Positions 9,201 through 58,966 of a stretch of 64,000 bases of DNA are shown here, one piece after another. The stretch is from Mobula hypostoma. Lineage: Eukaryota. Location of the stretch: assembly GCF_963921235.1 (NCBI RefSeq), contig NC_086108.1, positions 17,174,001 through 17,238,000 of the forward strand, in the 5' to 3' direction. Position 1 is the stretch's first letter; every line of letters begins with the position of its first letter. The notes beneath the pieces were generated by a model, which was given only the letters and a program-made list of their open reading frames with translations, had not been told where the DNA came from and did not search any database. A program made the position numbers and the translations under genes.

Positions 9201-12200
9201 ATTTAAAGTGAGAGAGGGAAAGTTTAAAGATTTACGAAGTAAATTTTACACTGAGAGCAGTAGATGCGCGGAATTCACCGTTGGGAAGGTGATAGAAGTA
9301 GACACAATAGCAACAGTCACGACAGACACATGAACATGAAGGGAATAGAGGGTATGGGCCATATGCTGGCAGATGGGATTAGTTTGATTGGCATCATGGA
9401 CATGGTTGGTTCAAGGGTCTGTTACTTTGCTGTGATGTTCTACGTATCTCCTTGTGAGCTTCCATCATTGTAACTTTATCTTCCAATCTTGTTTAAACAG
9501 AACTTCAAATGTGTCTTTTAGTTGTTATAACCAGGCAAGTAGTCAGATTAAATGAAGATCCATCTTATCCACAGTAATAGATACATTTTGCCCAAGTGAA
9601 AGACAAGTCCAAAGTTTGTGCATTGCTGTCTAACATGGAAGGACATCTGCAATGAAGGAGATACTACCACTGGGATTAGACTGTAGGCTGAGGCACGGAC
9701 AAAAAAAAACTCCATTTCAGACGGAAAAAGGTGCTCCGATGCTAATATTTATCTCTCAACAAGCACCTTAAAATAACTTGCTCGATATTCACACATTGTT
9801 GTTGGTAAGATCTAATTGCCTGAGTTGGCTACTGTATTTCCTAGTGTATTTCTAGAACGGTTTTTGCACGAGGCCAATTCAAGATAATGAAAGGCACTGA
9901 TTTGTAACCTGTCAAGGCAGAATCAACAGTGATGTAAAACTGACTACTACTTCTTGGGTAGTTACATGAGGATGAGAGGAGATGCAAGGAGTGAACAGAA
10001 AAAAAAGAACACAACAAAGCAAAGGTAAGTGAGGCAAACACTTTGCACTGTACTTTTAAATAAACCAACAAGAATACTGTACTCCTCCTAAGTACTGATA
10101 CATTGACGCCTATTCTATGAGAGAACAAGGCTGAGAAAGTAAACAGTGCCATGGTGACAATAATCTTCCACTCAGCAGACTACACGGCGCAGTCACCGGT
10201 TAGTTTGTCCTGTAGCGATGCTCATACAGCAGGTATTAGTTACATCCAAAAAAAACCATTACACACTTTTTCCATGTATACAAGAAAACCTACAGATGCT
10301 GGAAATCCATAGCAACACACACAAAATGCTGACAAACTCAACAGGCCAGGTAGCATCTATGGAAAAAAGTAAATAGTCAACAATTTGGACCAAGACCCTT
10401 CTCAGCCTGAAATATCAGCTGTTTACATTTTCTCAACATTCAAATACAACCAGGCTTATAGTTACTTCAAGTGTGCCTGCACCATCTGGCTTGAAACAGG
10501 CACCATAAAAAAGCCTGGTTCATTTGCTCATGGGAACTAGAGAGAGGTGTCAGGAAAGTCACTCCCAGAGGGGTTATGTACCTTAGTTATTTCCTAAGCA
10601 ACTTCTGGTAGGAATTACCTTCCTTTCAGGGTTATATGGAGCTTGCCTGGGTGTACAACTATCCATGCCAGAATACCTGGGACACTCACTGTTAGACTCA
10701 TCACTTTGTCAGGATCCAAGAACGTTGCCTTGGCATAACTCTAGCTGATGCTTGACCCACCACATGAATGCACCTATCACACAATGAAGCTCATACACAG
10801 GAAGGCAGGGCTGAAAGCAGGAAGCAGCCCATCTTAATTAAAGGGATTCTTAATTACTTTTGGGTCTACTGGAGCCAGATTTGGAAGAATTTTTTTAGGC
10901 ACAGCAGAATCTGAATCTGTGAGAAATGAAAAAAATTGACTGACATTAGTGAAGATCTCTATGTACCAGCATTACATGATTGTTATGCCTCTGACCTAGA
11001 CAACACCACACTGTAGGAAGGGTCTTGTCCTGAAATGTTGGCTATTAACTCTTTTCCATAGTTGCTGCCTTGTCTGCTGAGTTCCTCCAGCACTTTTGTG
11101 TGTGTTGACCACACCGCAGGAGTTTGAAGACAACTGTGTGCAGAAGTAAAGATCTTTGAGCACCATTCCTGGACTGCTCCATCTGTGGACATCAAAAATT
11201 CCTGCATCTTGTGGTCTCAGGGATTTTCCAGGCAGTGGAGATATTGATGCTAAAACTTGCAGCATGAGCACTTTCAAGTAAACTTGCTACCCAAGGGGAA
11301 GGAAATTCATATCCTGCAGTGGGCAGCAATGACCACCAATCTGCTGAAATTGATGATTCATTCTGTGCATAGGTGGCACTCAGGGTTACATGTGTGAACC
11401 GTAATCATTCATCAGCAGGGATGGCTCTAAACTAACCGTTTAGACAATAGCCTATCATCACTGATCCTGTGATCAATACTGTGCACCCAGGAAGCACAGG
11501 ACAGTGTGATCAAATTCTGCTAAAACCTCATTTTCAAGTTGAGGATGACACCACCGTAGCAGGCCTGACCTCAAAACAATAATGAGAGAGAACATAGGAT
11601 GGAAACAGAGAGCAAGCTGGCTTGGTGTCAAGACAAGCTTTCTCTCAATATCAGCACAACGAAGGAGCTGCTAATCTACTTCAGGAAACAGAACAGAGTA
11701 CATGCCCCTGTCTGTATCAATGGTGCTGAAGTGGAATTAGGTGACAGCTTCAAATTCTTTGGTGTAAACATCGGCAACAACTTATCCTGGACCAACCATG
11801 TAGGCCCAATAAAGTACACCAATGCTTCAACCTACTCTTAGCCTTAAGGAAATTTGGCATGCCCCCAATGACTTTCACCAAATTTTATAGAAAGCATCCT
11901 ACCTGATTCATCCTGCTTGGTATTGCAACTGCTGTACCCAGGATTGCAAGAAATTCCAGAGAGTTGAATGGGGATGCATTCATATCACAAAAAACAGCTT
12001 TTGTTCCATTGACTCTGTCTACATTCTCACCGTCTCACAAAAGCAGAATCAGAATCAGGTTTATTATCACCGGCATGTGTCGTGAAATTTGTTAACTTAG
12101 CAGCAGCAGTTCAATGCAATACATGACCATATAGAAAGAAAACAATAAAATAAGTAAATCAACTAAGTATATATATGTATAGTAAGTAGATTAAAATAGT

Positions 12201-15200
12201 GCAAAAACAGAAATAATATACATTTTTTAAAAAAGTGAGGTAGTGTTCATGGTTCAATATCCATTTAGAAATCCGATGGCAGAGGGGAAGAAGCTGTTCC
12301 TGTGTGCCTTCAGGATTCCTTACCCCCTTCCTGACAGATAACAATATGAAGAGGGCATGCCCTGGGTTAAGAATGGACATTGCCTTTCTGAGGCACCACT
12401 CCTTGAAGATGTCTTGGACACTATTGAGGCTGGTACCCAACATGGAGATGACTAATTTTACAACTTGTTTCAAATACACAAATTGTCTCTTCACTCTTGA
12501 AAAAGCCCTCCACAAGTTATACCTGTGTAAAACCCCCTAACTTCGTCATTCTCTATTCTCCCCCTTCCCATCATCCAAAAGTTTGAAAACATGTACCACC
12601 AGGCCCATGGACAGCTTCTATTCCACTGTCACACAAATCCCTTGTACACTAAAGATGAACTCTTGATCTTTCAGTCTACCTTGTCATGGTGTTTGTAGTT
12701 TATTTGTAACACTACATTTTTAAATCCGTTTTGTTTTCCATGTATAGTACCTTGAGGTATGTATGGAATAATCCTGTTATCTCAGTACACGAGACAAAAA
12801 TAAACCAATTACAAGAAAATCCACAGGTGCTTGTGGAATCTCAGTTACACATTCTCTATAAGCGATCAAGTCTATAACATTGCTACACTGTATGTTGCCT
12901 TTGAGAATGCCCTCCCTCATCACCATTCAGGGCCCCAGACAGTCCTTCTAGGTGAGGCGACACTTCACCTGTGAGTGGGCTGGGGTGATATACTGCGTCC
13001 GGTGCTCCCGATGTGGCCTTCTATATATTGGCGAGACCCAACACAGACTGGGAGACCGTTTTGCTGAACACCTACGCTCTGTCCGCCAGAGAAAGCAGGA
13101 TCATCCCGTTCCCATTCTGATATGTCTACCCACGGCCTCCTCTACTGTCAAGATGAAGCCACCCTCAGGTTGGAGGAACAACACCTTATATTCCGTCTGG
13201 GTAGCCTCCAACCTGATGGCATGAACATCGACTTCTCTAACTTCCATTAATGCCCCACCTCCCTATCGTACCCCATCTGTTATTTATTTATTATTATTAA
13301 TTTTTTCTCTCTCTCTCTCCTTTTTCTCCCTCTGTCCCTCTCACTATACTCCTTGTCCATCTTCTGAGCTTCCCCCCTCCCCCTTTCTTTCTCCCTAGGC
13401 CTCCTGTCCCACGATCCTCTCATATCCCCCTTGCCAATCAACTTTCCAGCTCTTAGCTCCATCCCTTCCCCCTCCTGTCTTCTCCTATCATTTCGGATCT
13501 CCCCTCCCCCTCCCACTTTCAAATCTCTTACCATCTCTTCTTTCAGTTAGTCCTGATGAAGGGTCTCGGCCCGAAACGTCGACTGCGCTTCTTCCTATGG
13601 ATGCTGTCTGGCCTGCGGCGTTCACCAGCAATTTTTATGTGTGTTGCTTGAAATTCCAGCATCTGCAGATTTCCTGATGTTTACGTTATTTGAGTTACTG
13701 TCTCTTTCCTGTGAATTTGAACCAGTTTGGCCATTCTCCTTTGATCTCTCTCATTAAGAAGATGTTTCCACCCACATAACTGCCATTCACTGTATACATT
13801 TTGTTTTTCACACTATTCTCTGTAAACTCTAGATACGTTGTGGATGCAGGTCAATGGGACTAGCAGAATAATGTTTCGGCACAGACTAGAAGGGCCGAAT
13901 GGCCTGTTTTCTGTGCTGTAGTGTACTATGGTTCTATGGCTGTGCTTGAAAATCCCAGGAGATCAGCAGCTTCTGAGATACTCAAAGCTCCCTGTCTGGC
14001 ACCAACAATCATTTCTCAGTCAAAGTCACTAAGATCACATTTCTACCCCATTCTGATGTTTGGTCTGAACATGTTTGCATGGTTTTCTGCATTGAGTGGC
14101 TGCCATGTGATTTGTTGATTACGTAACAAGCAGGTGTACAGATGAACCCAATAAAGCGGTCGCTAAGTGTAAGTAATGCAACTATATCGCTCAGTGTTTG
14201 TTATAAGTGTCTGAAGCTACAAGCCTGTGTTTTCATAGACTACTGGTACGATGTGCCGTTAATGTACCACTTTCTGCATGTTTCTCAAGGATTTAATAAT
14301 GAATGAGTCAGTGACCAGGCAGGAAACCAACGACTCACATCCTGGTGTCATTTCCTGCCAAGATCCCCTTCACACTTCCTGTTCCATTCTGCAACTTCCT
14401 GCTGCAAATCAAAACCCCTTGTCATATTTGGGTATTTCTAACCAGTTTCCTCCTAAGAGATAAACCGATACAGTATAGTACTCCACTATCAGAAGCCTGA
14501 GCAGTCCCAATAAACTTAAAAATCATCTTTATGAGTTTGCTTCTAGGACACTGATTTAAATGTAACAATTCATGAATGCACCCAGATCATGAGCCCTACA
14601 TAAATTAAAGGAGCTATTTTAGTTGGAGGAGATTGCTTGTCTTGTTCAGCAATAAACAACACTCATGCTAGGATTTTATTTCTGTTTTCTCTTGCCTTTT
14701 CCTGAAGGTACAAACTCCCTAATGAGGAATAGGGTAAAACAACTCCTGTGAAGAGAAATTTAGCATTTTAGATTCTGCTTCATCAGAAATTTAAAATTGA
14801 GAAAATGTGTGTGTTTTAAGTTGGGAAGAGAGCAAGGGTGAAAAGAACATCTGTGATAGCATGAGGACCAATCAGAGCCATCTCCAAAAGGGAAATGGAA
14901 GTCTGTAAATTACAGTTGATCTGTCTGGAGGGACTGTGAAGAGGATGATGAATGGTAGGATCAGAGAGTCAAAAAAAAAACCAACATAACTAGGAGTCAC
15001 TGGGCTAGCAGTGGATTTTAGTTGCTAACTTACCCTTTCAATTGGAGACAGATGTCTGAACCTGTGAGATGCAGATTACAACAGATGTTGGAAATCCAAG
15101 TAAATGTAAATTTTGTAAATACTCAGTAGGTCACATAATATCTATGCAGAGAAAAAAATGATGGATAATCCTATACCAGAACTGGCCAATTCTGCTACAA

Positions 15201-18200
15201 AAAAAGTAAAGCTGGTTATCTGAAATTGCTCAATTTCTTTCTTGGATTTCTAGACCAGACCTTATTTGAGTCTGTATTAATGCTACTTTCTGGTTGCCAG
15301 TTTCTCTCCTGCCCTCACTTTCACATGGTCCAAATCTGACTCTTCCCTTCCTTAATGTCTGTCTCCAATTGAGAGGAGAGGTTAGCAACTACAAGACCAA
15401 TGACTTCCAGTTATCTTGATTACACCGCCTCCCAGGACACCATCCTCGTCATTCAAATTCCTTTGTTATGGTCAGTTGTTCTGATAATCATACTTTCCAT
15501 GCTTGTGCTTATCAGATGCCATCCTCTCATAACTGACAGAGATCTCAATCACACCTTCTCTGTGACACACATTTCTGTCCTCACACCTTCTCTCTACGGC
15601 CAGAAAAAAGACAGGGCTCTCTTCAGCCACTAACCTCTGCATTTAGTGGCTCATCCTTTAATTACTGTTCCCTCAATGACTGTCCACAACCAAACACATC
15701 ACTCCTTCCTCTCCCTTGCCAGCACTTGTAAAACATTGTTTCTTCCACAACCTTTCAGTTCACTATTACATCTCCACCAACTACTCACCCTTTCACAGGC
15801 ATAGGAAACCTTTCCTTTTCACCATCCAGGGACTCAAAAATAGCTCTTCCAAGTGAAGCAACTATTCAGTTGCACTTCAAATTTAGCGTATTGTATTCAA
15901 TTGTTATGATGAGTCTCCCCTGCATTGGAGAATCCAAATGGATTGGGTGACTGCTTTGCTGAACATCTCCATGCAGTCCACAGGGATGACCCCGAGTTTC
16001 CAGTCACCATTTTAAATCTCCCTCACACTGTGGCCTCAACAAAGTCGAAAGCAGGTGCAAAGAACAGCATGTCATCTTCCTTCTTGGCATGCAGCACCCC
16101 GCCAGACTCAATATTGAAATCAACACTTTCTGATAAGCAGCCCTTTCAGTTTGTGTCAGAACCAACCAGCTCTCACGCAAATGCATCCATTTGTAATGCA
16201 TATCTCCACAGATGCAGACTGTTCTGCTTAGTGTTCCCAGCATTCTCCTTTATTTCAGACTTGCAGCATTTTGTTCTGAATAATTTGGACACTTAGACAT
16301 TTTCAATCTCTCATTGCTGCAGTCGGAAGTTCCCACCTGCTTGAAAAGGGCAACAATCATACCAGTGCCGAAGAAGAGCTGGGTGAACTGCTGTAATGAC
16401 TATCATCCAGTAGCACTCACATCTATGGTGATGAAATGCTTTAAGAGGTTGGTCATGGTTAGAATCAACTCCTGTCTCAGTAAGGATCTGACCCACTGCA
16501 ATTTGCCTATCACCACAATAGGTCTATGGCACATGTGATCATAATGGCTCTCCATGCGGTCTTGGATCACCTGGATAATACAAATATCTATATCAGATGC
16601 AGTTTATTGACTACAGTTTAGTGTTTAACACAATCATTCCTACAGTTCTGATCGAAAAGCTCTAGAACCTGGGCCTCTGAACCTCCCTCTGCAATTGGGT
16701 GCTTGGCTTCCTAACCGGAAGACCAAAATCTGTGTGGATGGCAAATAACATCTCCACCTCACCAATATTATCACTGGCGCACCTCAGGGGTATGTGCTTA
16801 GCTCACTACTCTACTCCCTCTATACCCATGACTGTATGGCTAGGCATAGCTCAAATGCCATTTATAAATTTGCTGATGATACCATTGTTGGTAGAATCTC
16901 AGATGGTGACAAGAAGGCATACAGGAGCGAGATATACCAGCTCCTGTATGCCCTCAACATAGTTGTGTTGTAGCAATAACCTTGCACTCAACGTAGCAGA
17001 CCAAAGAGCTGATTGTGGACTTCAGAAAGGGCAAGATGAGGGAACACAAACCAATCCTCATAGAGGGATCAGAAGTGGAGAGAGTGAGCAATTTCAAGTT
17101 CCTGGGTGTCAATATCTCTAAGGACCTAACATATTGATGCAGCTATAAAGAAGGCAAGGCGGCAGCACTCGGAGTTTGAAGAGATTTGGTTGACACTTAA
17201 AACACACATAAACTTCTACAGGTGTAAAATGGAGAGCATTCTGACTGGCCGCATCACCGTCTGGTATGAGGGGCTACTACACAGGACTGAAGTAAGTTGC
17301 AGAAAGTTGTAAACTTAGGCAGCTCCTTCATGGGTACTAATTTCCGGAGTATCCAAAACATCTTCAAGGAGTGGTGCTTCAGGAAGGTGGGATGCATCAT
17401 TAAGGACCCCCACCACCCAGGACATGCCCTCTTCTCATTGTTATCTGTCAAGAAGGGGGTACAGAAGCCTGAAGGCACACACTCAGTGATTCAGGAACAA
17501 CTTCCTCCCCTCTGCCATCCGATTTCTGAATGGACATTGAAACCATGAACACTACCTCACTACCTTTTTTTTTTATTTCTGCTTTTGCACCACTTATCTT
17601 AACTTAACTATTTAATATATTTAATTTACTTACTGTAATTCTGGTTTCTTTTCTATAGCGGAGATCTTAATACCTGTTTATCTCCAGCTTTGGACCGTTC
17701 GGCTCCTTTACGGACTTTACCTAATAAATCTGCAAATTTGATTAATTTTTTCCTTTCTGATTCTGGGTCGACGGACATTTGGCGTTTTCTGCATCCTCAG
17801 GAAAAAGATTTTTCCTTCTTTTCACATGTTCATCATTCCTATTCAAGAATTGATTATTTTTTCATTGATTCTCGTCTCATTCCTTCAGTGATTAAATGTG
17901 ATTATGATTCTATAACCATTTCGGATCATGCTCCACTTAAGCTTTCTATTAAAATTATGGCTAATATACCAAACAATAGACAATGGCATTTTAATTCGCT
18001 GTTGCTTCAGGACTCGGACTTTGTTAATTTTATGAATGAACAGATTGAGCTTTTTTTTACAATTAACCATACAGAAGATATTTCGGTTAACACTCTTTGG
18101 GACACTTTTAAAGCCTATATTCGGGGTCAGATTATTTCGTATTCCGTTGCTTTGAGGAAGAAACAGAAGCAGGAGGAGATGGCAATTGTGGACAAGATTA

Positions 18201-21200
18201 AAGAAATTGATAAGAAATATGTTATGGCTCCTTCTGAGGAGCTATACAAACAAAGAACTGAACTTCAAATGGAACACAGTTTACTACTCTCGTCCTCGAT
18301 TGTAAACCAATTAAAGAAAACAAGAAGTGATTTTTATGTTCACAGTGATAAAATTGGCAAGCTGCTGGCTAATCAATTGAAATCTAATTATGTTAAATCT
18401 CAAATCAATCAGATTTATAACCAAAATGATCGATTGATATTGGATCATGTGGGGATTAATCAAACCTTTTGTGATTTTTATTCTTCTTTATATCAATCAG
18501 AGTCTCCTCGAGATTCTAAATATATGAATGATTTTTTAGATAAGTTAGACTTCCCTCAGATTTCACAGGATATGTCTTCTTTATTAGATACTTCCATTAC
18601 AATGGATGAGATTAAGAATGTTATTTTTTCTATGAATCTGGGGAAAGCTCCTGGCCCTGATGGGTTTACCGTTGAATTTTATAAATGTTTTGCTTCTTTA
18701 TTGATTCCTTGGCTCTATAAGGTTTTTGAGGCTTCTTTGAAACTTGGTAAACTTCCGGAATCTTTTAATAGAGCATCAATTTCTTTAATACTAAAGAAGG
18801 ATAAAGACCCTGCTCAATGTGCATCTTATAGACCAATATCTTTATTAAATGTTGATTCTAAAGTTTTTTCTAAATTATTAGCAAATAGACTAGAAAAAGT
18901 ACTTCCTTCTATTATTTCGGAAGACCAAACGGGTTTTATTAAAGGTCGTTACTCTTTTTATAATATTCGTACATTGTTAAATATCGTTTATACTCCCTCA
19001 CAAAATGTTCCTGAGTGTGTTATTTCTTTAGATGCCGAGAAAGCTTTTGATAGAGTAGAATGGCCTTATTTATTTAAGGTGCTTGAAATGTTTAATTTTA
19101 GCTTGAAATTTATATCCTGGATTTAACTGTTATATCACTCCCCTGTAGCCTCGGTTCGTACTAACTCTTTAAACTTACCTTTTTTTCCTCTCTTTCGTGG
19201 TACTCGACAAGGCTGTCCTCTTAGTCCCCTATTATTTGATATTGCATTAGAACCTCTTGCAATTGCTATTCGAGAATCTTCAAATATTACTGGGATAACT
19301 CGGGGATTAAAGTCCCATAAATTATCACTCTATGCTGATGATTTACTTTTATATATTTCTAATCCTGAGAGATCCATTCCTGCTGTTTTAGAGTTATTAG
19401 CACAATTTGGTCTTTTCTCAGGTTATAAATTAAATCTTAGTAAGAGTGAACTTTTTCCGATTAATAAACATCTTCCCTTATATTATAAATTTCCATTTAA
19501 ATTGATTAATAATTACTTTTCATATCTTGGGATTAAAATTACTTGTAAACATAAAGATTTATTTAAGACTAACTTTTTACCATTAATAGACCATATTACT
19601 CAACTTTCATCTAAATGGTTTCCCTTATATTTAACTTTGATTGGTCGTATTAATGCAGTTAAGATGTTTTTTTTGCCAAAATTTTTATATGTGTTTCAGG
19701 CATTACCAATTTTCATTCCTAAATCTTTTTTTGATAAAGTTGACTCTAAAATTTCTTCATTTATTTGGCAGAATAAGAATCCGAGACTGGGTAAAATACA
19801 TTTACAGAAAGCTAAGAGAGATGGAGGTTTAGCATTACCTAACTTTAGATTTTATTATTGGGCTATTAATATTCGACATATGAAATTTTGGTTACTTGAC
19901 CGGGACATATTATCTATTCCTAAATGGGTAGCATTGGAATTACAATCTGTTCAGGGTTATACACTTGGTTCTATTTTAGGTTCCTCTCTTCCTTTTGATT
20001 CGAAACGCCTTAAGCAGGTCTCTAACCCGATAGTTAAATATGCTTTGCGTATTTGGTTTCAATTCAGAAAATTTTTTGATCTTAATCAATTCGGGTTAGC
20101 GATTCCTATTTTAGGTAACATATTTTTTCCTCCCTCTTTTACGGATCGCGCTTTTCAAACTTGGAAGCCCTCTTCTCATTGTTATCTGTCAAGAAGGGGG
20201 TACAGAAGCCTGAAGGCACACACTCAGTGATTCAGGAACAACTTCCTCCCCTCTGCCATCCGATTTCTGAATGGACATTGAAACCATGAACACTACCTCA
20301 CTACCTTTTTTTTTATTTCTGCTTTTGCACCACTTATCTTAACTTAACTATTTAATATATTTAATTTACTTACTGTAATCCTGGTTTCTTTTCTATACTT
20401 AACTATTGCATTGTACTGCTACCACAAAATTAACAAATTTCCCAAAATATGCCAGTGTATTAAGCTTGATTCTGGAAATCAGTTCCAGCATGTTGTCAAT
20501 GCATTTTTATTCATCACTCTCTACTGCTTGTTCTACACTCTTTCAGACAGATCGACCACAATTTACAAGTACTTCCCTCAACCAATAGCACCAAAAGCAA
20601 TTATCACAGACTATTGTGACCTTCATACTACTAGCCATTCCTTCTGCTCTCTCCACCCTCCTCCTCTTTAGCGTGCTTATTTCCTCATTTTCCCATTATG
20701 ATGAAGGGCCATCGATCGCTGAATCTCTGTTTGAACTATTCATGCCACCCTATTTATATACAGATATTGTTCTATAACCATTATTTCTTCTAAACTTGAC
20801 TTTTTAACCACCTTTCGTGTTGGGCCATCTCATTTGGTACTTAACTATTCTTGTTCCCCCCCCCCGATTCCCAACCTAATGTCACAAGTAACAGCAATGG
20901 AGGAAAAATTAGCAAGAGCATTTCACTGGGGCAGTAACACAAAACTAGACATTGGGACATACAAGGTGCTACTAGGGCAAATGTCCAGAAGTTCAATCAG
21001 TATCGGCTTCCTGTCGAAGGGACTCAGCCCGAAGTGTTGTCAGTACTTTTTTTCCCATAGATGCTGTCTGGCCTGCTGAGTTCCTCCAGCATTTTGTGTG
21101 TGTTGCTTAGTTAAGCAGTTACAGGTGTCCCCTGCTTTCCGAACTTTCGCTTTACGCCACTTCGCTTTTACAAAAGACCTACATTAGTACCTGTTTTCGC

Positions 21201-24200
21201 TAACCGAGAGGATTTTCACTTTTACGAAAAAAGATGCCAGCTTTAAATTTGTGTTTACCCCAAGAAAGACTACCATGACCATGAAGCCTTGCGCGGGCAG
21301 GTGTGTGCACATGCGTGTACGTGCAGATTTTTTTCTATAAATCGGTTTTGGCTCAATCTTCCCGATTCTGCTAAGTGAAACTACACCGTACATACATTAT
21401 TTCTACTTTATATAGGCTGTGTATTTATCATCATTCCTGCTTTTACTATATGTTAGTGTTATTTTAGATTTTATGTGCAATAGCGTGGTATGATTTGGTT
21501 CGTTATTTTTTGGGTCTGGGAATGCTCAAAAATTTTTCCCATATAAATTAATGGTAATTCCTTCTTCACTTTACGCCATTTTGGCTTACGATTTCATAGG
21601 AACTCTCTACCTTCGGAGGGTTTAAACTAGATTTGCAGGGGGATGGGAACCAGAGTGCCAGAGCAGATAGTGGAGCGGGGTGAAAATAAATGATGTTAAA
21701 AGTTCACGCAAAGTCACAAATAGAAGGGTTGTGTGTGGTGGTAATAATCTTCTGAGGTGTGTCTATTTCAATGCAGGAGTATTGTGAGGAAGGCTGACGA
21801 GCTGAGAGTGTGGATTGACACATGGAATTACGACATTATAGCCATTAGTGAAGCTCGGCTACAGGAGGGGCAGGACTGGCAGCTTAATATTCCAGGGTTT
21901 TGATGTTTCAACATGATAGAGGCAGAGGAATGAAGGGTGGCATTGCTAGTCAGGAAAAATGCTACAGCAGTGCTCAGGCAGGACAGATTAGAGGGCTTGT
22001 CTACTGAGGCCATATAGGTGGAGCTGAGATGTATTATAGACCACCCAATAGTCAGTGAGAACTGGAGGAGCAAATCTGCAGAGAGATGGCAGGAAGCATA
22101 AAGTTGTGATAGTAGGGGATTTTAATTTTCCACATATTGATTGGGATTCCCATATTGTTAAAAGTCTAGATGGGTTAGAGTTTGTAAAACGTGTTCAGGA
22201 ATGTTTTCTAAATCAATATATAGAGGTACCAACCGGAAAGGATGCAATATTAGATCTCCTATTAGGAAACGAGTTAGGACAGGTGACGGAAGTGTGTGTA
22301 GGGGAACACTTTAGTTCCAGTGATCATAACACCATTAGTTTCAACTTGATCATGGACAAGGATAGATCTGGTCCTCGGGTTGAGGTTCTAAACTGGAAAA
22401 AGGCCAAATTTGAAGAAATGAGAAAGGATCTAAAAAGCGTGGATTGGGATAGGTTGCTCTCTGGCAAAGATGTGATTGGTAAGTGGGAGGCCTTCAAAGG
22501 AGAAATTTTGAGAGTGCAGAGTTTGTATGTTCCTGTCAGGATTACAGGCAAAGTGAATCAGAATAAGGAGCCTTCGTTTTCAAGGGATATTGGAACTCTG
22601 AAAAGAAGAAAAGAGAGATGTATGACATGTATAGGAAACAGGGAGCAAATAAGGTGCTTGAGGAGTATAAAAAGTGCAAAAAAATACTTAAGAAAGAAAT
22701 CAGGAGGACTAAAAGAAGACAAGAGGTTGCATTGGCAGTCAAGGTGAAGGATAATCCAAAGAGCTTCTACAGGTATATTAAGAAAATAAAGGGGAAGCCT
22801 TTTAGGACCGAGATGAGGAAAAACTTCTTCACACAGAGAGTGGTGAATCTGTGGAATTCTCTGCCACAGGAAACAGTTGAGGCCAGTTCATTGGCTATAT
22901 TTAAGAGGGAATTAAATAAGGCCCTTGTGGCTAAAGGGATCGGGGGTATGGAGAGAAGGCAGGTATAGGGTTCTGAGTTGGATGATCAGCCATGATCGTA
23001 ATGAATGGCGGTGCAGGCTCGAAGGGCCGAAAGGCCTACTTCTGCACCTATTTTCTATCTTTCTATCTAAGAGCAAAAGGATAGTAAGGGATAAAATTGG
23101 TCCTCTTGAAGATCAGACTGATCGGCTATGTATGGAACCAAAAGAAATGGGGAAGATCTTAAATGGTTTTTTTGCGTCTGTATTTACTAAGGAAACTGGC
23201 ATGGAGTCAATGGAAATAAAGCAAACAAGTAGTGAGGTCATGGAACCTATACAGATTGAAGAGGAGGAGGTGCTTGCCATCTTGAGGCAAATCAGAGTAG
23301 GTAAATCCCCAGGACCTGACAGGGTATTCCCTCAGACCTTGAAGGAGACTAGTGTTGAAATTGCAGGGGCCCTGGCAGATGTATTTAAAATGTCAGTATC
23401 TACGGGTGAGGTGCCAGAGGATTGGAGGATAGTTCATGTTGTTCCGTTGTTTAAAAAAGGCTCTAAAAGTAATCCGGGAAATTATAGGCCAGTAAGTTTG
23501 ACGTCGGTAGTAGGTAAATTATTGGAAGGAGTACTAAGAGATAGGCCCTACAAGTATTTGGATAGACAGGGATTTATTAGGGAGAGTCAACATGGCTTTG
23601 TACGTGGTAGGTCATGCTTAACAAATCTATTAGAGTATTTCAAGGAGGTTACCAAGAAAGTGGATGAAGGGAAGGCAGCGGATGTTGTCTACATGGACTT
23701 CAGTAAGGCCTTTGACAAGGTCCTGCATGGGAGGTTAGTTCGGAAGATTCAGTCGCTAGGTATACATGGAGAGGTAGTAAATTGGATTACACATTGGAAG
23801 AAGCCAGAGAGTGGTAATGGAGGATTGCTTCTCTGAATGGAGGCCTGTGACTAGTGGTGTGCCACAGGGATCAGTGCTGGGTCCATTGTTATTTGTCATC
23901 TATATCAATGATCTGGATGATAATGTGGTAAGTTGGATCTGTAAATTTGCTGATGATACAAACATTGGAGGTGTAGTGGACAGTGAGGAAGGTTTTCAAA
24001 GCTTACAGAGGGATTTGGACCAGCTGGAAAAATGGGCTGAAAAATGGCAGATGGAGTTTAATACAGACAAGTGTGAGGTATTGCACTTTGGAAGGACAAA
24101 CCAAAGTAGAATGTACAAGGTAAATGGTAGGGCACTGAGGAGTGCAGTAGGATCTTGGAATACAGATACAAAATTCCCTAAAAGTGGCGTCACAGGTAGA

Positions 24201-27200
24201 TAGGGTCGTAAAGAGAGCTTTCGGTACATTGGCCTTTATAAATCAAAGTATTGAGTATAAGAAACACACATAAAAGTTGCTGGTGAACGCAGCAGGCCAG
24301 GCAGCATCTCTAGGAAGAGGTACAGTTGACGTTTCCGGCCGAGACCCTTCGTCAGGACCAACTGGAGTGTTATGTGTGTTGCTTGAAATTCCAGCATCTG
24401 CAGATTTCCTCGTGTACTGAGTGTAAGAGTTGGAATGTTATGGTGAGGTTGTATAAGGCATTGGTGGAGCCGATTTGGAGTATTGTGTGCAGTTTTGGTC
24501 ACCAAATTACAGGAAGGATATTAATAAGGTTGAAAGAATGCAGAGAAGTTTTACAAGGATGTTGCCAGGACTTGAAAAAGTGAGTTACAGAGAAAGATTG
24601 AATAGGTTAGGACTTTATTCCCTGGAGCATAGAAGAATGAGGGGAGATTTGATAGAGGTATATAAAATTATGATTGGTATAGATAGAGTGAATGCAAGCA
24701 GGCTTTTTCCACTGAGGCAGGGAGAGAAAAAAACCAGAGGACATGGGTTAAGGGTGAAGGGGGAAAAGTTTAAAGGGAACATTAGAGGGGGCTTCTTCAC
24801 ACAGAGAGTGGTGGGAGTGTGGAATGAGCTGCCAGATAAAGCGGTAAATGCTTTTAACATTTAAGAAAAACTTGGACAGGTACATGGATGAGAGGTGTAT
24901 GGAAGGATATGGTGCAGGTGCAGGTCAGTGGGACTAGGCAGAAAAATGGTTCGGCACAGCCAAGAAGAGCCAAAAGGCCTGTTTCTGTGCTGTAATGTTC
25001 TGTGGTTCTAACTAAATACAATTTTAAAGTGCTAAACAAAGTGTGAAATGGCCTTCCATGTACAGTGACACTTTCTATCTGAAATAATAACTCTGATACT
25101 GAGCAACACACATCAAAGTTGCAAGTGAACGCAGCAGGCCAGGCAGCATCTCTAGGAAGAGGTGACCAGCAACTTTGATGTGTGTTGCTTGAATTTCCAG
25201 CATCTGCAGAATTCCTGTTGTCTGATACTGAGCAGCATTTTTTTTTCAGATTTATAGAATTAACAATATTTCTGTCACATGATTATCAGCGTTTGTTGTT
25301 GTATTGATTGATGAAATATCTGTAAGTTTTAATTCTTTTCACAGTAAACAAGTTTACTTAGATGTGATTAGTCAGGAACTTCCGACATATTAAATAATTC
25401 CACTCTCAGTTTCTCTTCAAGAGAAGAAAAACCTAGGGAAGGCAAACATTCCTGAGTTATTCTCTTAGGCTTTGGTTCAAAGAGAATTAGATTCAAAGAG
25501 CTTAATTAGATTCATGCATTTTGGTCTAAGAAAGCTTAACTCCTCAAACTTACCACTGGTCATGTGGGACACTTTGGCCAGCTTCTTCATTACATTATCC
25601 ATCCGTGACTGTGTGCTATCCAACTCATAGGAGAACTCGTCAAGCATACTGTGGGAGATTAGAGCGTACAGTGAAACCTTAAACTGAGGAGTGGGGTCCA
25701 ATTTTACCCTCCACACACACTAAATAATTTATAGAACTTGTTACTGACTCCACTTTATATGAGATTTTCCACTTCTCCCTCAGTTACAATGCCTTGCCAT
25801 GATTGTTCTAAAAACAAAGCTACTTAGACTTCATCCTTAGTAATAGCCCCACCAGTATACACCTTCCTTACCTTTACCTCCAAATACATGCAGAAAATAG
25901 CCATTCTCCTTCACCAACAAATATCTCACCTCCTTATAAATGCATAGCATTCCAACACCTACAAATAAACCCTATCATATCCACATCCCCTCAAAACATA
26001 CATGAAGACAGAAACACCTTCGCTCTCAAGTATGAGATAAAATAAGTTGCCCCATGGCTCCCCCTGCACACTCTTGTTCTTCACAAATATATAAAACTCT
26101 CGCTGTCAATTTCATCAGTATATACAGTGGATTCCACTTAATTGGGCCATCAGTTAATCAGGGCAGCTGCATGTTTGAGACAACTCTGAAAGAACAAAAA
26201 CTAATCAAAAAGATAGAGGGGATCCTCTTCATTTATTTGGGCTACCATGCTGCTTAATTGGAATGAGAGACCGCTGCTGAACAGTTTCTAACTAGCATCA
26301 GTCACATACACTAGTGCAGCCGTTAGACATTACACCCCTGCTTCGAGCAAACAGTTTTTAAACAGCATCAGTTGCTGTTATGTTGTCCTTTTGTACCAAT
26401 GGACGCTGATTCAAAAAGCAGTGATTTTTGATCATTTTGATTTTTAAAAAGTTCAGATCCTTGCCAAGATGCCTCAAAAATATTTGACACCAGCTGAAAA
26501 AATTACCCTGCTGGACCAAATTAAAAGCCATCTACCTAACACCACTAATCGTCAGCCAGCAGAGATAACTGGAGTGTTGAAATCTACAATTGCACACTTA
26601 ATACATCAGCAAGATAAATTTGCGAGAAGAATGGGCATTATGCAAGGGACAACAGGGAACTTCCCAACAACGAAAGTGTAAAGGTAAGGACCCAGATGTT
26701 GAAGAGGCCCTCAATCAATGGTTTTCTATCATAACTGGACAAGGTGTGCGTATCAGTAAATTAATGTTAAAAAATAAGTCAGTGAAGGTAGCTAAGAAGC
26801 TGGGTCACAAAGATTTTAAAGCAACAAATGGTTGGTTGTCTCAATGGAAATGTTGGCACCACATTAAATTCAAGAGAGCACATGGTGAGAAAGATAGTGC
26901 TGATGCTGTAAATGGAGAAACACGGAAATCTACAAAATTTCCTGACTTGCTTCAAAAATTTTGTGTAGATACCTACAATGCTGATGAAACAGGACTTTTT
27001 TATTCTGCCATGCTGGATGGTTCCCTTGGCTACAAATATGCAACACTATCAGGTTCCAAGAGAGCAAAGGATCGCATAATGGATCGATTATATGCACTAG
27101 ATGTCCATGTCAATTTTGTTTACTTACAGTCAATCAAAAGAACACATCAGCATTTGACCCTCTGATACTCAAGCCAGGGAGAGCAAGCTGTTGCCCATGC

Positions 27201-33200: not shown

Positions 33201-36200
33201 TATAGTTAATACCTTTGACTTTGATTACCATTTATCGTTTCCTCATGGAAATGCTGGAATAAGCCAGAGGGCACTTTACAGTCCAATGTACTTATGGGAA
33301 AGATTGCAGAGGGAGCTTTGCTGTGTACTAAACCTGGCCTTCCCTTCCCTAAAGATTTTTTGGTATGACTATAACAGGGAAATGACACTTTGTTCCCTCC
33401 TGAAAGAGTATTAGGACATCAGTTGAGTTTTCAATTACAATCTGACAGCAGGACATTGACTTTAAACTGTTTGAGACTTGAAACCATTTTCTGGATTATC
33501 CATTCATCTTCCACACCGGCAAACAATATAACTAATACCTTGCACCAAAGTAACTCCAGACACAAATACAGTTTTAGCAATGGCATTAGTCACAAAAGAG
33601 GACAATAGCGTATTTTGTTCTCCCTCTCCTCATAATCTTCCATGTTATTCTCTCAAGTCCCACTGCGTCCTTGCCCAACAACAGGAGACACTGATTCTCA
33701 ACTTCCCATACACTACCACAACTCACATGAAGCACTCACTTTCACATGCATCAAGGCTTACCTTTACGATTTGTTTTGTACTGGTAATGAACGCTTTCCT
33801 TTTACTCAATTCTGCTGGATCGAGGTTAAACTTGCGAGGGTTTGTCTCCACGATGCGTAATGTGCAGTTGAGGCAAACTAACTGATGCATGTATGGTAGG
33901 TGTGAACTCAACAAACAAATTATATTGTCTTTAACATAATGAATTATGTGCTTTGCAGAAACATAATCAAATCCAGTTAAAAATTACTCAGATTGTAGCA
34001 TTTTTTTTTAGCTTTAATTGCCTTTATATACTCTGGGGAAAAAAAATGCCCTTGCCATGGAACATTTCAAAATCCCATCTTTTGCTCTCACTCTTTCCCA
34101 CATCACCCCAACTTAGGACACAAATATTACTCACTTTAAAATATACTTTACATCTGTAGGCAATAGGGTAAATTCCACAACCTCCTTTTGATGCCATCCC
34201 AACATTACTGTTGTTATAAAGATGCCAAGTTCTGCTCTGTTTCCACATATACTTTCACCTAACAATTGATTCTTGTGTTTCGTAACTTGGCTGAATCTAA
34301 TTCCCTTCTCAAACGATGATGGATTATTGTAGTCTAAAAGCAAGAACCACAGAAAATGAAATCCTGAAATAAAAACAGAAAATACTGCTAAGTTACTATT
34401 CAACTTTTATTTTCTGTTTCAATTTCTGATTTCCTGCTTTTGCAATTTAGTTTCAGCTCTTGGTCGCCATCCTGTCACAACCATTCGTGTACTCAACAAT
34501 CCTCTTTCTTCTCTGCAACTTAATTTCCATTTTTTCAGTTCTGAAAATGTTCAGTTCAATTCTCTGGTTTCTCTCTCCATCAACACCACTTGACCTAGTT
34601 TCCAGCATTTTCTACTTCTATTAAAATATTACAACTTGATTTAACAATACTGTCACCAAATTCAATTTGCTACTAAGCACAACTACTTTAACATTTACTT
34701 TGGGAAATTATTCCAGTTACTCAAATATTAGCCATTGGAAATTCCATTAAGGGGGAACTTACTTTCAGTATTAATGTTGGTTGTAAGTTGGACAGTGAAT
34801 TTCACCTCCAGTTTTAATCATTGCAGGATAACACGTAGCTGGCTTACTGTAGCTCTGTTCACTAAATTTCAGAACAGACGTGGTGACATCTACGTGGAAA
34901 AGATTTAGGCACATACAGTGGTGCTAGGAAGTTTGTGAACGCTGTAGAATTTTCTTTATTTCTTCATAAATATGACCTAAAATGTGATCAGATCTTCACA
35001 CAAGTCCTAAAACAAGACAGAACATAGAACAGTACAGCACAGTACAAGCCCTTCAACCCACAATGTTGTGCTGACCCTTAAACCCTGCCTCCCATATAAC
35101 CCCCCCCACCTTAAATTCCTCCATATACCTGTCCAGTAGTCTCTTAAATTTGAACCACTCTGAGTAAAAAACCTTCCTCTAATATCCCCCTTGAACTTCC
35201 CACCCCTTACCTTAAAGCTTTGTCCTCTTGTATTGAGCAGTGATGCCCTGGGGAAGAGGCGCTGGCTGTCCACTCCATCTATTCCTCTTAATATCTTGTC
35301 TATCCTCAATCATGTCTCCTCTCATCCTCCTTCTCTCCGAAGAGTAAAGCCCTAGCTCCCTTAATCTCTGATCACAATGCATACTCTCTAAACCAGGCAG
35401 CATCCTGGTAAATCTCCTCTGTACCCTTTCCAATGCTTCTACATCCTTCCTATAGTGAGGCGACCAGAACTAGACACAGTACTCCAAGTGTGGCCTAACC
35501 AGAGTTTTATAGAGCTGCATCATTATCCCGCGACTCTTAAACGCTATCCCTCGACTTATGAAAGCTAACACCCCATAAGCTTTCTTAACTACCCTATCTA
35601 CCTGGAGGCAACTTTCAGGGATCTATGGACATGTACGCCCAGATCCCTCTGCTCCTCCACACTATCAAATATCCTGCCATTTACTTTGTACTCTGCTTTG
35701 GAGTTTGTCCTTCGAAAGTGTACCACCTCACACTTCTGCAGGTTGAACTCCATCTGCCACAACTCAGCCCCTTCTGCATCCTATCAATGTCTCTCTGCAA
35801 TCTTCGACAATCCTCTACACTCTCCACAACACCACCAACCTTTGTGTCATCTGCAAACTTGCCAACCCACCCTTCTACCCCCACGTCCAGGTCGTTAATA
35901 AAAATCACGAAAAGTAGAGGTCCCAGAACAGATCCTTGTGGGACACCACTAGTCACAATCCTCCAATCTGAATGTACTCCCTCCACCACCACCCTCCGCC
36001 TTCTGCAGGCAAGCCAATTCTGAATCCACCTGGCCAAACTTCCCTGGATCCCATGCCTTCTGACTTCCTGAATAACCCTACCATGTGGAACCTTGTCAAA
36101 TGCCTTACTAAAATCCATGTAGATCACATCCACTGCACTATCCTCATCTATATGTCTGGTCACCACCTCAAAGAACTCTATCAGGCTTGTTAGACACGAT

Positions 36201-39200
36201 CCGCCCTTCACAAAGCCATGCTGACTGTCCCTGATCAGACCATGATTCTCTAAATGCCCAGAGATCCTATCTCTAAGAATCTTTTCCAACAGCTTTCCCA
36301 TCACAGACGTAAGGCACATTGGTCTATAATTACCCTGACTATCCCTACTACCCTTTTTGAACAAGGGGGCAACATTCGCCTCCCTCCAATCCTCCGGTAC
36401 CATTCCCGTGGACAACGAGGACATAAAGATCTTAGCCAGAGGCTCGCAATCTCTTCCCTTGCCTCGTGGAGCAGCAGGGGAATATTTCGTCAGGCCCCAG
36501 GGACTTACCCGTCCTAATGTATTTTAACAACTCCAACACCTCCTCTCCCTTAATAGCAACATGCTCCAGAACATTAACCTCACTCATATTGTCCTCACCT
36601 TCATCAAGTTCCCTCTCATTGATGAATACCGAAGAGAAGTATTCATTGAGGACCTCGCTCACTTCCACAGCCTCCAACCTTTGTCTCTAATCAGTCCTAT
36701 CTTCACTCCTGTCATCCTTTTGTCCTTCACATAATTGAAGAATGCCTTGGGGTTTTTCTTTACCCTACTCACCAAGGCCTTTTCATACCCCCTTCTTGCT
36801 GTCCTCAGCCCCTTCTCAAGCTCCTTTCTTCCTACCCTATATTCCTCAATAGACCCATCTGATCCTTGCTTCCTAAACCTCATGTATGCTGCCTTCTTCC
36901 ACCTGACTAGATTTTCCACCTCACTTGTCACCCATGGTTCCTTCACCCTACCATTCTTTATCTTCCTCACCGGGACAAATTTATCCCTAACATCCTGCAA
37001 GAGATCCCTGAACATCGACCACATGTCCATTGTACATTTCCCTGCAAAAAAATCATCCCAATTCACACCTGCAACTTCTAGCCTTATAGCCTCATAATTT
37101 GTCCTTCCTCAATTAAAAATTTTCCTGTCCTCTCTGATTCTATCCTTTTCCATGATAATGCTAAAGGCCAGGGAGCGGTGGTCACTGTCCCCCAGATGCT
37201 CACCCACTGAGAGATCTGTGACCTGACCTGGTTTGTTACCTAATATTGCATTTCCCCTAGTCGGCCTGTCAACATACTGTGACAGGAATTTGTCCTGGAC
37301 ACACTTAACAAACTCTGCCCTGTCTAAACCATTGGAACTGATCAGGTGCCAATCGGTATTAGGGAAGTTAAAGTCACCCATGATAACAACACTGTTATTT
37401 TTGCACCTTTCCAAAATCTGCTTCCCATGCTACCAGGGGGCCTATAGAATACCCCCAACAGAGTAACTGCTCCCTTCCTATTCCTGACTTCTACCCATAC
37501 TGACTCAAAAGAGGATCCTGCTACATTACCTACCCTTTCTGTAGCTGTAATAGTATCCCTGACCAGTAATTCCACCCCTCCTCCCCTCCCCCCCATCCCT
37601 TTTAAAACACTGAAATCCAGGAATATTGAGAATCCATTCCTGCCCTGGTGCCAGCCAATTCTCTGTAATGGCCACTACATCATAATTCCATGTATGTATC
37701 CAAGCTCTCAGTTCATCACCTTTGTTCCTGATGCTTCTTGCACTTTAGCCCTTCTACCTTACTACCTTTACACCCTTTATTCTGCTTCTCTTTCCTCAAA
37801 GCCTCTTTATATGTTAGATCTGGCTTTACTCCATGCACTTCTTCCACTGCTCTATTGCTCTGGGTCCCATCCCCCTTGCAAATTAGTTTAAACCCTCCTG
37901 AACCATGCTAGCAAACCTGCCTGCAAGGATATTGCTCCCCCTTGATAAAGAGAATCAAATTAAATTAAAAATTATACTTGCTCATTTATTTATTTATTGA
38001 GAAAAATTATCCAATATTACATGTATTTGTTGGAAAAAGTAAGCGAACCTCTGAAGTAATGCCTTCTACAAAATCTATTTGGAGTCAGCTGTTTCAATCA
38101 ATAAAATGAGATTGGAGGTGTGGGTTGTAGAGCTGCCCTGCCCTATTAAAGAGACACACAAAGTCAGGCTATTGACAGAGCCTGCTCTTCTCAAGAAATA
38201 TCTGTTTATGTGCACCATGCCTCGATCAAAACAACTTTCAGAGGATGTTAATAGAATTGTACATTTATAGCTGGAAAAAGCTACAAGAGCATTTTGAAAG
38301 ACCTGAATGTTCATCAGCCCACAGCAAGAGAAATTGTCTACAAATGGAGGAAACTCAGTACAGTTGCTACTCTCCCTAGGAGTGGGCATCCTACAAAGAT
38401 CACACCAAGAGCACAATGTACAATACTGAAGTAGGTGAGAAGGAACCGAAAGGTAACAGCAAAAGACCTGCAAAATTCTTGAGAACTTACTAAAGTATCT
38501 GTTTGTGCATCCACTATAAGAAAAACACATAACAAGACTAGTGTTCATGGAAGGACACCACAGAGGAAACCACTGCTCTTGGCAAAAAAACACTGCTGCA
38601 CTTCTGAAGTTTGCAAAAGACCACCTGGATGTTCTATAATGCTTCTGGGACAATATTCTGTGGACAGATGAAACAGAAGTTGAACTTTTGGCAGAAATGC
38701 TCATTGCTACGTTTGGAGAAAAAAAGGCACTGCACACAAACACCAACACCATAACCTCATCCCAACTGTGAAACATGGTGGAAGGAGCAACATGGTTTGG
38801 GCTACTTTGCTGCCTCAGGGCTTGGACAGCTTGCAATCATCGAGGGGACAATGAATTCAAAATTGTATCAAGATATTTTACAGGAGAATGTCAGAGTAGC
38901 AGTCCGTCACCTGAAGCGTAATAGAAGTTGGATAATGCAACAAGACAATAATCCAAAAGACAACAGTAAATAAACAACAGAATGGTTTAAGAAGAAGAAA
39001 ATTTATAATTTGGAAGGCCAAATCAAAGTCCTGACCTTAATCCTATAGAAACGTTGTGGAAGGACCTGAAACAAGAACTTCATGCAAAAAAGCCCACCAT
39101 CATCCCAGAGTTGAAGCAGTTTTGTAATGAAGAATGGCCTACAATTCCTCCAAGCCGATGTGCATGACTGATCAACAGTTACTGGAAGCGTTTGGTTGAA

Positions 39201-43070: not shown

Positions 43071-44782
43071 CTTTTCCAACCTCACTCCTTCCGAGGCTCT
43101 GCTCTCCATTCCGTCCACACTAATCCTAAACTCACCATCAAACCCGCAGATAAGGGAGGTGCTGTCCTGATCCCTACCTAGCGGAGGCCCAACGTCAACT
43201 CTCTTCCCTCTCGAACAGGACTCCACTAAGGAACAGCAGGTCATCGTCGCCCACACCATCGCCAACCTTATTGACTCTGGGGATCTCCCATCCATCGCCA
43301 ACAACCTCATAGTTCCCGCAGACTGCACCTCCTGTTTCTACCTCCTACCCAAGATCCATAAACCCGCTTGTCCAGGTAGAACCATTGTTTCAGCTTGTTC
43401 CTGCCCCACTGAACTCATATCGGCTTACCTCGACTCTGTTTTATCCCCCTTCGTTCTGACCCTCCCTAGCTGTGACACCTCACACGCTCTTGATCTTTTC
43501 AACGATTTCAAGTTCCCGGGCCCCCATCATCTCATTTTTACTATGGATGTCCAGTCCCTAATCACCTCCATCCCCCTGTAGGAAGGCCTCAAAGCTCTCC
43601 GTTTTTTTTCCCTGGACACCAGACCGAACCAGTTCCCCTCCAGTTCCACTCTCCTTCACCTAGCGGAATTTGTCCTCACTCTCAATAATTTCTCCGTTGG
43701 GTTCTCCCATTTCCTTCTAACAAAAGATGTAGCCATGGGCACTCACATGGGTCCCTGCTATGCCTGTTGGTTCGTTGGCTACGTGGAACAGTCTGTGTCC
43801 CAAGCCTGCACAGGTGATCGTCCTGTACTTTTCATGCGCTACATTGGTGCTGTTTCCTGCATCCGTGCTGAACTCGTCGACTTCATCCACTTTGCCTTCA
43901 ACTTACACTCTGCCCTCAAATTTACCTGGTCTATTTCTGACACCTCCCGCCCCTTTCTCGATCTTACTGTCCCTATCTCCGGAGACAGCGTATCCATTGA
44001 TGTCTACTGCAAACCCATGGACTCTCACAGCTACCTAGACTACACTTCATCCCACCCTACTACGCCATCCCCTTTTCTCAATTCCTCCGTCTCCGCCGCA
44101 TCTGCTCTCCGGATGAGGCTTTTCATTCTGGAACGAAGGATATGTCTTCCTTTTTCAAAGAAAGGGGCTTCCCTTCCTCCATCGTCCACGCTGCCCTCAA
44201 CCGTATCTCATCCATTTCACGCATGTCTGCTCTTACCCCATCATCCCGCCACCCTACCAGGGATGGGGTTCCTCTTGTCCTCACCGCCTCCGCGTCCAGC
44301 ACATAATTCTCCGAAACTTCCGCCACCTCTAACAGGCTCCCACCACCAAGCACATATTTCCCTCCCCCCTCACTTTGTGCTTTCGGCAAAGATCGTTCCC
44401 TATGCGACTCCCTCGTCCATTCGTCCCTCCCCACTGATTTTCCTCTTGTTACCCTTGCAAGCGGAACAAGTGCCCCTACACCTCCTCCTTCACTACCATC
44501 CAGGGCCCTAAACAGTCCTTCCAGGCAAGGCGACACTTGACTGTTAGCGGATTTGACTCTGTGGCCGGTGTTCCCGGTGTGGCCTCCTGTACATCAGTGA
44601 GACCCGACATAGATTGGGAGACCGCTTCGTCGAGCATCTACGCTCCGTTCGCCAGAACAAGCGAGATCACCCAGTGGTCACCCATTTTAATTCCACTTCT
44701 CATTCCCATTCCGGTATGTCCATCCATGGCCTTCTCCACTGTCGTGATGAGGCCACACTTAGGCACAACACATTATATTCCG

Positions 44783-58192: not shown

Positions 58193-58966
<774 letters not shown>

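Follow-up and report, generated by a model that had tools for sequence, protein, structure and literature searches.

A probable minimal hammerhead ribozyme in the pLTR of a Neptune-type Penelope-like element that is very abundant in a cartilaginous fish

The DNA analysed here, a 64-kb stretch referred to below as the window, contains at 13549–13584 a short motif that reads as a hammerhead ribozyme and that recurs, in various states of decay, at several other positions. The locus raises the question of what carries this motif, whether its scattered copies spread as small ribozyme RNAs of their own, and what the motif does in the parent element. We conclude that it very probably is a minimal hammerhead ribozyme (min-HHR) in the pLTR of a Penelope-like element (PLE), Neptune-type and endonuclease-positive, that is very abundant in a cartilaginous fish.

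The hammerhead motif and its copies in the window

The letters of the copy at 13549–13584 (+), AGTC CTGATGA A GGGT CTCG GCCC GAA ACGT C GACT, form a stem I of AGUC/GACU plus a U·G pair, a stem II of GGGU/GCCC, the core segments CUGAUGA and GAA, a bulged A and an ACGU palindrome; C13580 is H17 (C17), the base immediately 5′ of the predicted cut. The initial annotation had described a type-I hammerhead core with a stem I of 4–5 bp and a loopless palindromic ACGU, and this description is confirmed by the sequence and by a strict structural descriptor that requires the core, at least 3 bp in stem II and at least 4 bp in stem I. Four of the copies in the window are as follows.

13549–13584, + strand: minimal type-I hammerhead motif, intact (sequence reading, ungapped scan, strict descriptor, covariance model)
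45257–45292, + strand: minimal hammerhead motif, intact core, G10.1·U11.1 (scan, descriptor, covariance model)
48212–48247, − strand: minimal hammerhead motif, intact core, G10.1·U11.1 (scan, descriptor, covariance model)
45598–45633, + strand: motif with a broken core (C3U, A6C), stems and ACGU retained (scan, covariance model)

The 64-kb window was scanned without gaps with the 13549 copy, and 30 Markov-shuffled windows served as the control. Two mismatches each separate this copy from those at 45257–45292 (+) and 48212–48247 (−), four from 24324–24359 (−), six from 45598–45633 (+), 11 from 21007–21042 (+) and 12 from 11008–11043 (+); the best match in the shuffled windows had 13–16 mismatches, and never fewer than 13. 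A copy at about 10385 (−) was recovered by BLAST (10283–10405, 74%, E 1e-12) and as a weak covariance-model match (10371–10411, E 0.59). All eight motifs proposed at the outset were thus found by scan or BLAST, and the three that had been called intact are exactly the three that the strict descriptor accepted in the window (13549, 45257 and 48212), each with a palindromic helix III; the 30 shuffles contained no palindromic match. Two descriptions held in part: the copy given as 45597–45634 is present, but its true coordinates are 45598–45633, and the copy at 24324, which had been classed as damaged, is damaged in its stems at the inner pairs (C2.1/A1.1 and G10.1/G11.1) but not in its core, where every base is kept.

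The full core (C3 U4 G5 A6 N7 G8 A9, G12 A13 A14 A15.1, U16.1 H17) is present at 13549, 45257, 48212 and 24324, all of which also have an unpaired A between A9 and position 10.1; the remaining four copies (45598, 21007, 11008 and ~10385) are decayed, with a broken core. The 10.1/11.1 pair is G-C in 13549, G·U in 45257 and 48212, and G/G in 24324. Two further relics of the family were absent from the initial annotation, one at 25102–25164 (−) that starts 3′ of the ribozyme and one at ~56530–56900 (−) that holds only the 5′ half of the motif. The comparison with Rfam that had been suggested as a check does not recognise the motif: no hammerhead family matched at E ≤ 5 on the window or at E ≤ 10 on 13500–13640.

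The carrier element and its relatives

The motif sits about 300 nt 3′ of the stop codon of an ORF ending in GIY-YIG, on the sense strand, in all three of the long intact copies. No full-length element is present in the 64-kb window, hence there is no 5′ pLTR to inspect. The insertions and relics of the family, with ends numbered from the cut site where signed, are listed here.

12911–13689, + strand: 5′-truncated Penelope-like insertion carrying the 13549 motif; GIY-YIG end, pyrimidine-rich UTR, motif, long tail
43098–44782, + strand: older-subfamily Penelope-like ORF in decay, with RT, linker and GIY-YIG, split by a younger insertion
44783–45390, + strand: young 5′-truncated insertion nested in the older element; 13-bp TSD (44770–44782 / 45391–45403)
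45404–45735, + strand: 3′ end of the older element (ORF end, UTR, tail)
48118–48688, − strand: young 5′-truncated insertion, 95% identical to 44819–45393; 14-bp TSD
24263–24413, − strand: short insertion; inverted tail arm (+57 to +101), then direct piece (−39 to +70) with the motif at 24324–24359
25102–25220, − strand: short insertion without ribozyme; inverted tail arm (+44 to +101), then direct piece
21007–21108, + strand: short old-subfamily relic (−29 to +70), motif decayed (scan, alignment of ends)
11008–11107, + strand: short old-subfamily relic (−22 to +67), motif decayed (scan, alignment of ends)
10283–10411, − strand: short old-subfamily relic (−27 to +105), motif decayed (BLAST, covariance model)
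56530–56900, − strand: end of an old related element, with ORF end and pyrimidine UTR and, of the motif, the 5′ half (~56572–56590) but no 3′ half (by eye; weak alignment)

The GIY-YIG end of the insertion at 12911–13689, which has no clear TSD, spans 12913–13229 with a frameshift or deletion near 13105 and matches PF01541 at E 2e-4 (21.9 bits, slightly below the cut-off of 22.6). The short insertion at 24263–24413 (−) sits within a CR1-like relic and has a 15-bp TSD with two mismatches; that at 25102–25220 (−) has a TSD of 17 bp with one mismatch (14 exact bases), and its direct piece begins about +6 to +8 past the cut site. At 44770–45403 a young copy lies inside the EN-coding end of an older element of like kind, which places two motifs 341 nt apart on the same strand. 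A very old GIY-YIG-like end followed by tail-like sequence, with no recognisable motif, was seen by eye at 15800–16260 (+).

A profile of 20 proteins matches 43098–44942 in order, the RT at E 1.6e-139; the 43098–44782 relic itself, which contains stops and frameshifts, has no Pfam match. Its RT part is matched at E ≤ 1e-20 by 88 longer proteins, of which the closest two are from a shark, Chiloscyllium punctatum (63% and 59%) and the others are mostly unnamed, some of them from corals, molluscs and turtles. Each of three full-length relatives examined contains both PF00078 (RVT_1) and PF01541 (GIY-YIG). The linker that joins RT to EN reads CxxxxCxTC in aligned full-length relatives, and the window relic retains only CxxxxC. 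Since a CX2-5CxxC linker is given as a mark of Neptune and Nematis (PMC8557442), we call the element Neptune-type, an assignment made by motifs, namely the linker of its relatives, and not by a tree. Together with the features described for such motifs in PMC4209133, the GIY-YIG ORF upstream upholds the link to Penelope that had been proposed for the minimal type-I hammerhead.

Conservation was examined in the best 80 of 514 metagenome-contig loci encoding related proteins (254 kb); the window RT is about 50% identical to these distant marine proteins. The strict descriptor gave eight matches in the 80 loci, all of them on the sense strand, palindromic and with the bulged A, and no palindromic match in 15 shuffles; five sit 110–214 nt beyond the point where the ORF ends, and the other three are upstream of the ORF match. 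The letters of the helix III palindrome change while the palindrome is kept: ACGU occurs five times, and AGCU, ACGCGU and AAAUUU once each.

L062:2436–2482, L076:3261–3303 and L079:1875: relatives with the other helix III palindromes (AGCU, ACGCGU, AAAUUU)

A clear motif within 700 nt was seen in only eight of 23 hand-picked loci with an ORF end, three of the 23 having less than 130 nt of flank, and the motif pattern gave nothing in viral contigs. In an alignment of seven window copies with seven relatives, 86.9% of the cells were paired, compared with 66.9 ± 2.6 in shuffles, and two-sided changes occurred in eight of the 11 stem pairs. When the 80 loci were searched with a covariance model built from these 14 sequences, 23 matches came up, of which 16 were new; six lie on the opposite strand, as expected for inverted pLTRs. 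Among the 16 held-out matches, the inner stem-I cells were paired in 42/45 cases and those of stem II in 60/63, the outer two stem-I pairs were not kept (3/30 cells), and G5, G8, A9, A13 and A14 were invariant (16/16); the pairing counts are biased towards structure, as hits were chosen by a pairing descriptor or model, and seven of the 16 held-out matches are near-identical. The covariation that had been proposed as a check is therefore present across distant relatives as two-sided stem changes, but absent among the intact window copies. Within the window family, excess conservation of the motif is not significant: two of its 36 columns vary among the three long copies, compared with 77/438 upstream (a count that pools ORF and UTR) and 19/101 downstream (p ~0.065 each).

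Besides this family, the window contains one recognised host gene, an open frame of the immediate-early-response (IER) family at 58193–58966 (+; PF05760, E 1e-57). A LINE ORF2 relic, L1-like by eye and with RVT_1 matches, lies at 17639–20230 (+) as open frames of 495 and 367 aa with one stop between them. CR1-like LINE relics (endonuclease, RVT_1) and a Tc5/Tigger-type transposase relic were seen at 22052–24864 (+), 35681–37674 (−) and 26602–27165 (+).

Spread, cleavage and role of the motif

The 3′ ends of the copies fall into two classes about 35 nt apart, at +67 to +70 relative to the cut site in four copies and at +102 to +105 in five. Clear TSDs of 13–17 bp flank four of the nine copies (chance fractions 0 to 0.01), the search having returned nothing significant for the other five. 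Two short copies (24263 and 25102) begin with an inverted tail arm that starts at the far tail end, and opposite-strand joints linking the two end sites (48115/48117 to 48151) were seen in DNA-run contigs, 18 and 27 of them. Four of the nine copies extend into the GIY-YIG ORF, each from a different point, and five are short (~60–145 nt), with 5′ ends at −39, −29, −27, −22 and +8; none measures between ~145 and 570 nt. The short-copy 5′ ends thus bunch at the ribozyme (−39 to +8), in a sample of nine copies that is too few for a test. Tandem Repeats Finder gave seven short rows on the window, none containing the motif, and no copy lies in a tandem array; the only close motif pair (45257/45598) is the nested insertion, with one core broken. 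ARAGORN found no tRNA gene in the window. An optional tail of 30–40 bp, inverted pLTR pieces and short TSDs are described for PLEs (PMC3846280, PMC8557442). The truncation, the TSDs, the inverted tails and the lack of tandem arrays and tRNA genes argue for truncated PLE insertions and against retrozymes, and the scattered copies are, to judge from these marks, ordinary truncated insertions of a very abundant PLE. The insertions at 24263–24428 (−) and 25102–25237 (−), 800 bp apart, share a layout, with an inverted tail and then a direct piece that terminates at the short site; CTCAGTA occurs in the 5′ TSD copy of each.

Contigs from a DNA run and from two runs presumed to be RNA were aligned to a 601-base copy of the family. 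This copy was matched by 168,176 contigs of the DNA run, which bears out the earlier inference of a very high-copy ribozyme family, and by 13,618 and 8,020 contigs of the presumed RNA runs, matches that do not establish transcription of the motif as a unit; in a raw-read run of another organism, 0 reads matched. Summed DNA depth amounts to 7.8–9.9 M over the motif, with 5.7–6.5 M where the ORF ends and ~3.5 M for the tail; on crossing the motif's 5′ edge it drops from 9.9 M to 5.4 M. Individual depths were 4–18 among the eight X1 contigs listed. These data point to a copy number of the order of 10^5 or more, the summed depth itself not being a copy number, and an order of 10^5 copies fits the 9–10 relics found per 64 kb. 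The ORF-end depth, about two-thirds of that of the motif, implies that long copies are common, so the view that the family is mostly tail-only fits the many short copies of the window (5/9) but is overstated genome-wide. Loose contig ends pile up at both motif edges (569 at 48247 and 490 at 48211), which suggests that other subfamilies keep the motif but have different flanks. None of the 40 variants listed, beyond which there are 59 further rows, falls within the motif (p ~0.07), and this is given no weight as evidence. A joint that steps back 35 nt over the motif alone (48213–48247) was seen in two contigs in X1 and one in X8; it resembles a tandem duplication of the motif and could provide a local dimer.

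In the folding model, 47-nt fragments form a closed hairpin by pairing of GA(C/U)G with CGUC at a probability of ~0.85, and the open form at only 0.001–0.02. A double-hammerhead dimer is assigned −18.1 kcal/mol, compared with −24.0 for two monomers and −32.3 for the best dimer, in energy models that leave out the tertiary core; fold z-scores were −0.7 to +1.0 for seven stretches of 109–149 nt around the copies. Min-HHRs are reported to be inactive as monomers and weak as dimers (PMC4209133), and the HHR of an anole element to cut only with the element's protein (PMC11167929); the folding result, which favours inactive forms, agrees with this published behaviour. Several candidate arrangements were rejected. 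For a natural double hammerhead made of the 45257 core and the cut site at 45629 (341 nt 3′), 13 standard pairs can be drawn, and its probability is ~2e-14. The closed GA(C/U)G:CGUC hairpin does not behave as a conserved off-switch, N7 being C or U in only nine of the 16 held-out relatives. Immediately 5′ of stem I, at 13520–13546, 45230–45256 and 48248–48275 (−), lie a branch-like CTCAC/CTTAC, a pyrimidine tract and CAG. This arrangement resembles the intron end that has been reported at helix I of the Penelope HHR of Drosophila virilis (PMC4209133); a pLTR intron ending at stem I found no support, no GT..AG joint being present among the 15 of 145 joints listed.

The short copies might be read as a separate non-autonomous family, SINE- or retrozyme-like, whose short ribozyme RNAs are mobilised in trans by a Penelope RT. 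Their bunched 5′ ends and the empty interval between ~145 and 570 nt speak for such a family, as do the fall in summed depth at the 5′ edge of the motif and a 2026 preprint that derives animal retrozymes from PLE pLTRs (bioRxiv 10.64898/2026.07.22.740005). The depth drop, however, is confounded, as other subfamilies have a different UTR, and the ORF-end depth stands at about two-thirds of that over the motif. The fixed 5′ head by which SINEs are recognised is also missing, the copies having five different 5′ ends and no common end or upstream leader. Furthermore, the short copies come from both subfamilies and have the TSDs and inverted tails of ordinary PLE insertions. A family of this kind is accordingly improbable, and the SINE- or retrozyme-like propagation put forward in the initial annotation finds no support in a window without tandem arrays or a tRNA gene, in which four of nine copies reach the ORF, four of nine have TSDs and two have inverted tails.

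A rival to cleavage, which bears on function only and is compatible with the min-HHR/PLE identity, holds that the motif is a structural signal (for protein binding, RT positioning or as part of a promoter/splice region) with no in vivo cleavage in this lineage. Eight of the nine window copies span the scissile bond, the ninth beginning a few bases past the cut site, so the RNA template of these eight was either uncut at that point or re-ligated; no loose-end pile lies at the cut (48215/48216) among the 18 rows listed, beyond which there are 1,612 more. The folding preference for inactive forms points the same way, as do the reports for the anole element that HHR mutants insert normally in vitro and that no RNA-seq ends fall at the cut (PMC11167929). 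Against this stand the catalytic-core bases, which are almost invariant in the 16 held-out relatives, and the cleavage of the anole HHR once protein is added, which C3G or G8C abolishes (PMC11167929). We consider an in vivo role without cleavage possible but doubtful. That an amplified repeat merely happens to hold CUGANGA...GAAAC is far less credible: the missing Rfam match, the unremarkable fold z-scores and the non-independence of copies from one genome are what can be said for chance, but in distant relatives the core, the bulged A and the palindrome persist at the corresponding site even though the stem sequences have been exchanged. To the extent that descriptor and held-out results can decide it, chance is largely refuted and has a very small probability.

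For the parent element we predict weak, assisted cleavage as the rather more probable function, a mainly structural role of the motif being an appreciably less likely one; the motif copies of the window are decaying passengers. In the model that we favour, the GIY-YIG endonuclease of the element would nick AT-rich DNA, and the RT would begin from either of two internal positions, ~70 or 104 nt beyond the cut, leaving the ~35-nt tail optional. Early RT stops would be usual, yielding 5′-truncated copies, sometimes with an inverted arm and a duplication of 13–17 bp. In an active parent the motif most likely self-cleaves weakly after GUC, either through a double hammerhead formed by two pLTRs or helped by the element's protein, and this cleavage would trim a multimeric transcript; insertion would not require it, and the window copies would decay neutrally as passengers. 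We also put forward, as a tentative and on balance unlikely extension, that the 5′ ends of the short insertions are non-random: RT from +70 or +104 would run off a defined RNA end at the ribozyme, namely a site just 5′ of stem I where transcription starts or a splice acceptor lies, with the cut of the ribozyme as that end in a minority of cases. If run-off of this kind is true, the copies, probably in the hundreds of thousands, would make the genome a fossil record from which the occurrence and frequency of in vivo cutting by a Penelope hammerhead could be read.

Comparison with known systems

Min-HHRs in metazoan PLE pLTRs, including those of the fish elements Xena, Poseidon and Neptune, were described by Cervera and De la Pena in 2014 (PMC4209133), and according to PMC6155905, which repeats the point, every PLE examined has motifs of this kind. 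The window motif shares with the min-HHRs of PMC4209133 the type-I topology, a helix I of 4–5 bp, the extra nucleotide that separates position 9 from 10.1, G10.1-C11.1, the loopless palindrome at 15.2–16.2, the place in the pLTR and the occurrence mostly as single, dispersed copies of truncated elements. It differs from the Schistosoma min-HHR, whose helix II is 7–8 bp, in having a helix II of 4 bp. The family is apparently far above the 4,000–9,000 copies given there for coelacanth and Xenopus, and much more uniform. Its host is a cartilaginous fish, a group for which no mention was met in PMC4209133; two supplementary files of that paper contain no shark or skate names, and its file 1 may list some.

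PAc, the Poseidon element of Anolis carolinensis (Frangieh et al. 2024, PMC11167929), whose RT starts at two internal sites, resembles the window family in its HHR within the pLTR, in two classes of 3′ ends 30–40 nt apart downstream and in AT-rich flanks. Unlike PAc, the window family is Neptune-type by its motifs, and it has no common start codon at the start of stem II, where ATG occurs in 13549 and ACG in 45257, 48212 and 24324. With the animal non-LTR retrozymes the window copies share a type-I hammerhead, the link to PLE pLTRs and the form of small non-coding pieces (PMC7229834, bioRxiv 10.64898/2026.07.22.740005). Retrozymes, however, are tandem repeats of 150–450 bp in which two or more consecutive units have a hammerhead, and those of PMC7229834 have canonical hammerheads and circular RNA, whereas the window motif is minimal, its copies are not in tandem and their truncation points vary.

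No study on min-HHRs of sharks or rays was found in a literature search whose coverage leaves most subscription journals outside; a preprint on shark and ray genome size contains no PLE terms, and a count of hammerhead retrozymes in a chondrichthyan is already given in one preprint. The kind of motif is thus known since 2014, fish Neptune elements included, and what is added is a very abundant family of a cartilaginous fish that carries it. As the role of the hammerhead in EN+ Penelope elements is described as unclear in PMC8557442, so abundant a family is a good place to ask what that role is.
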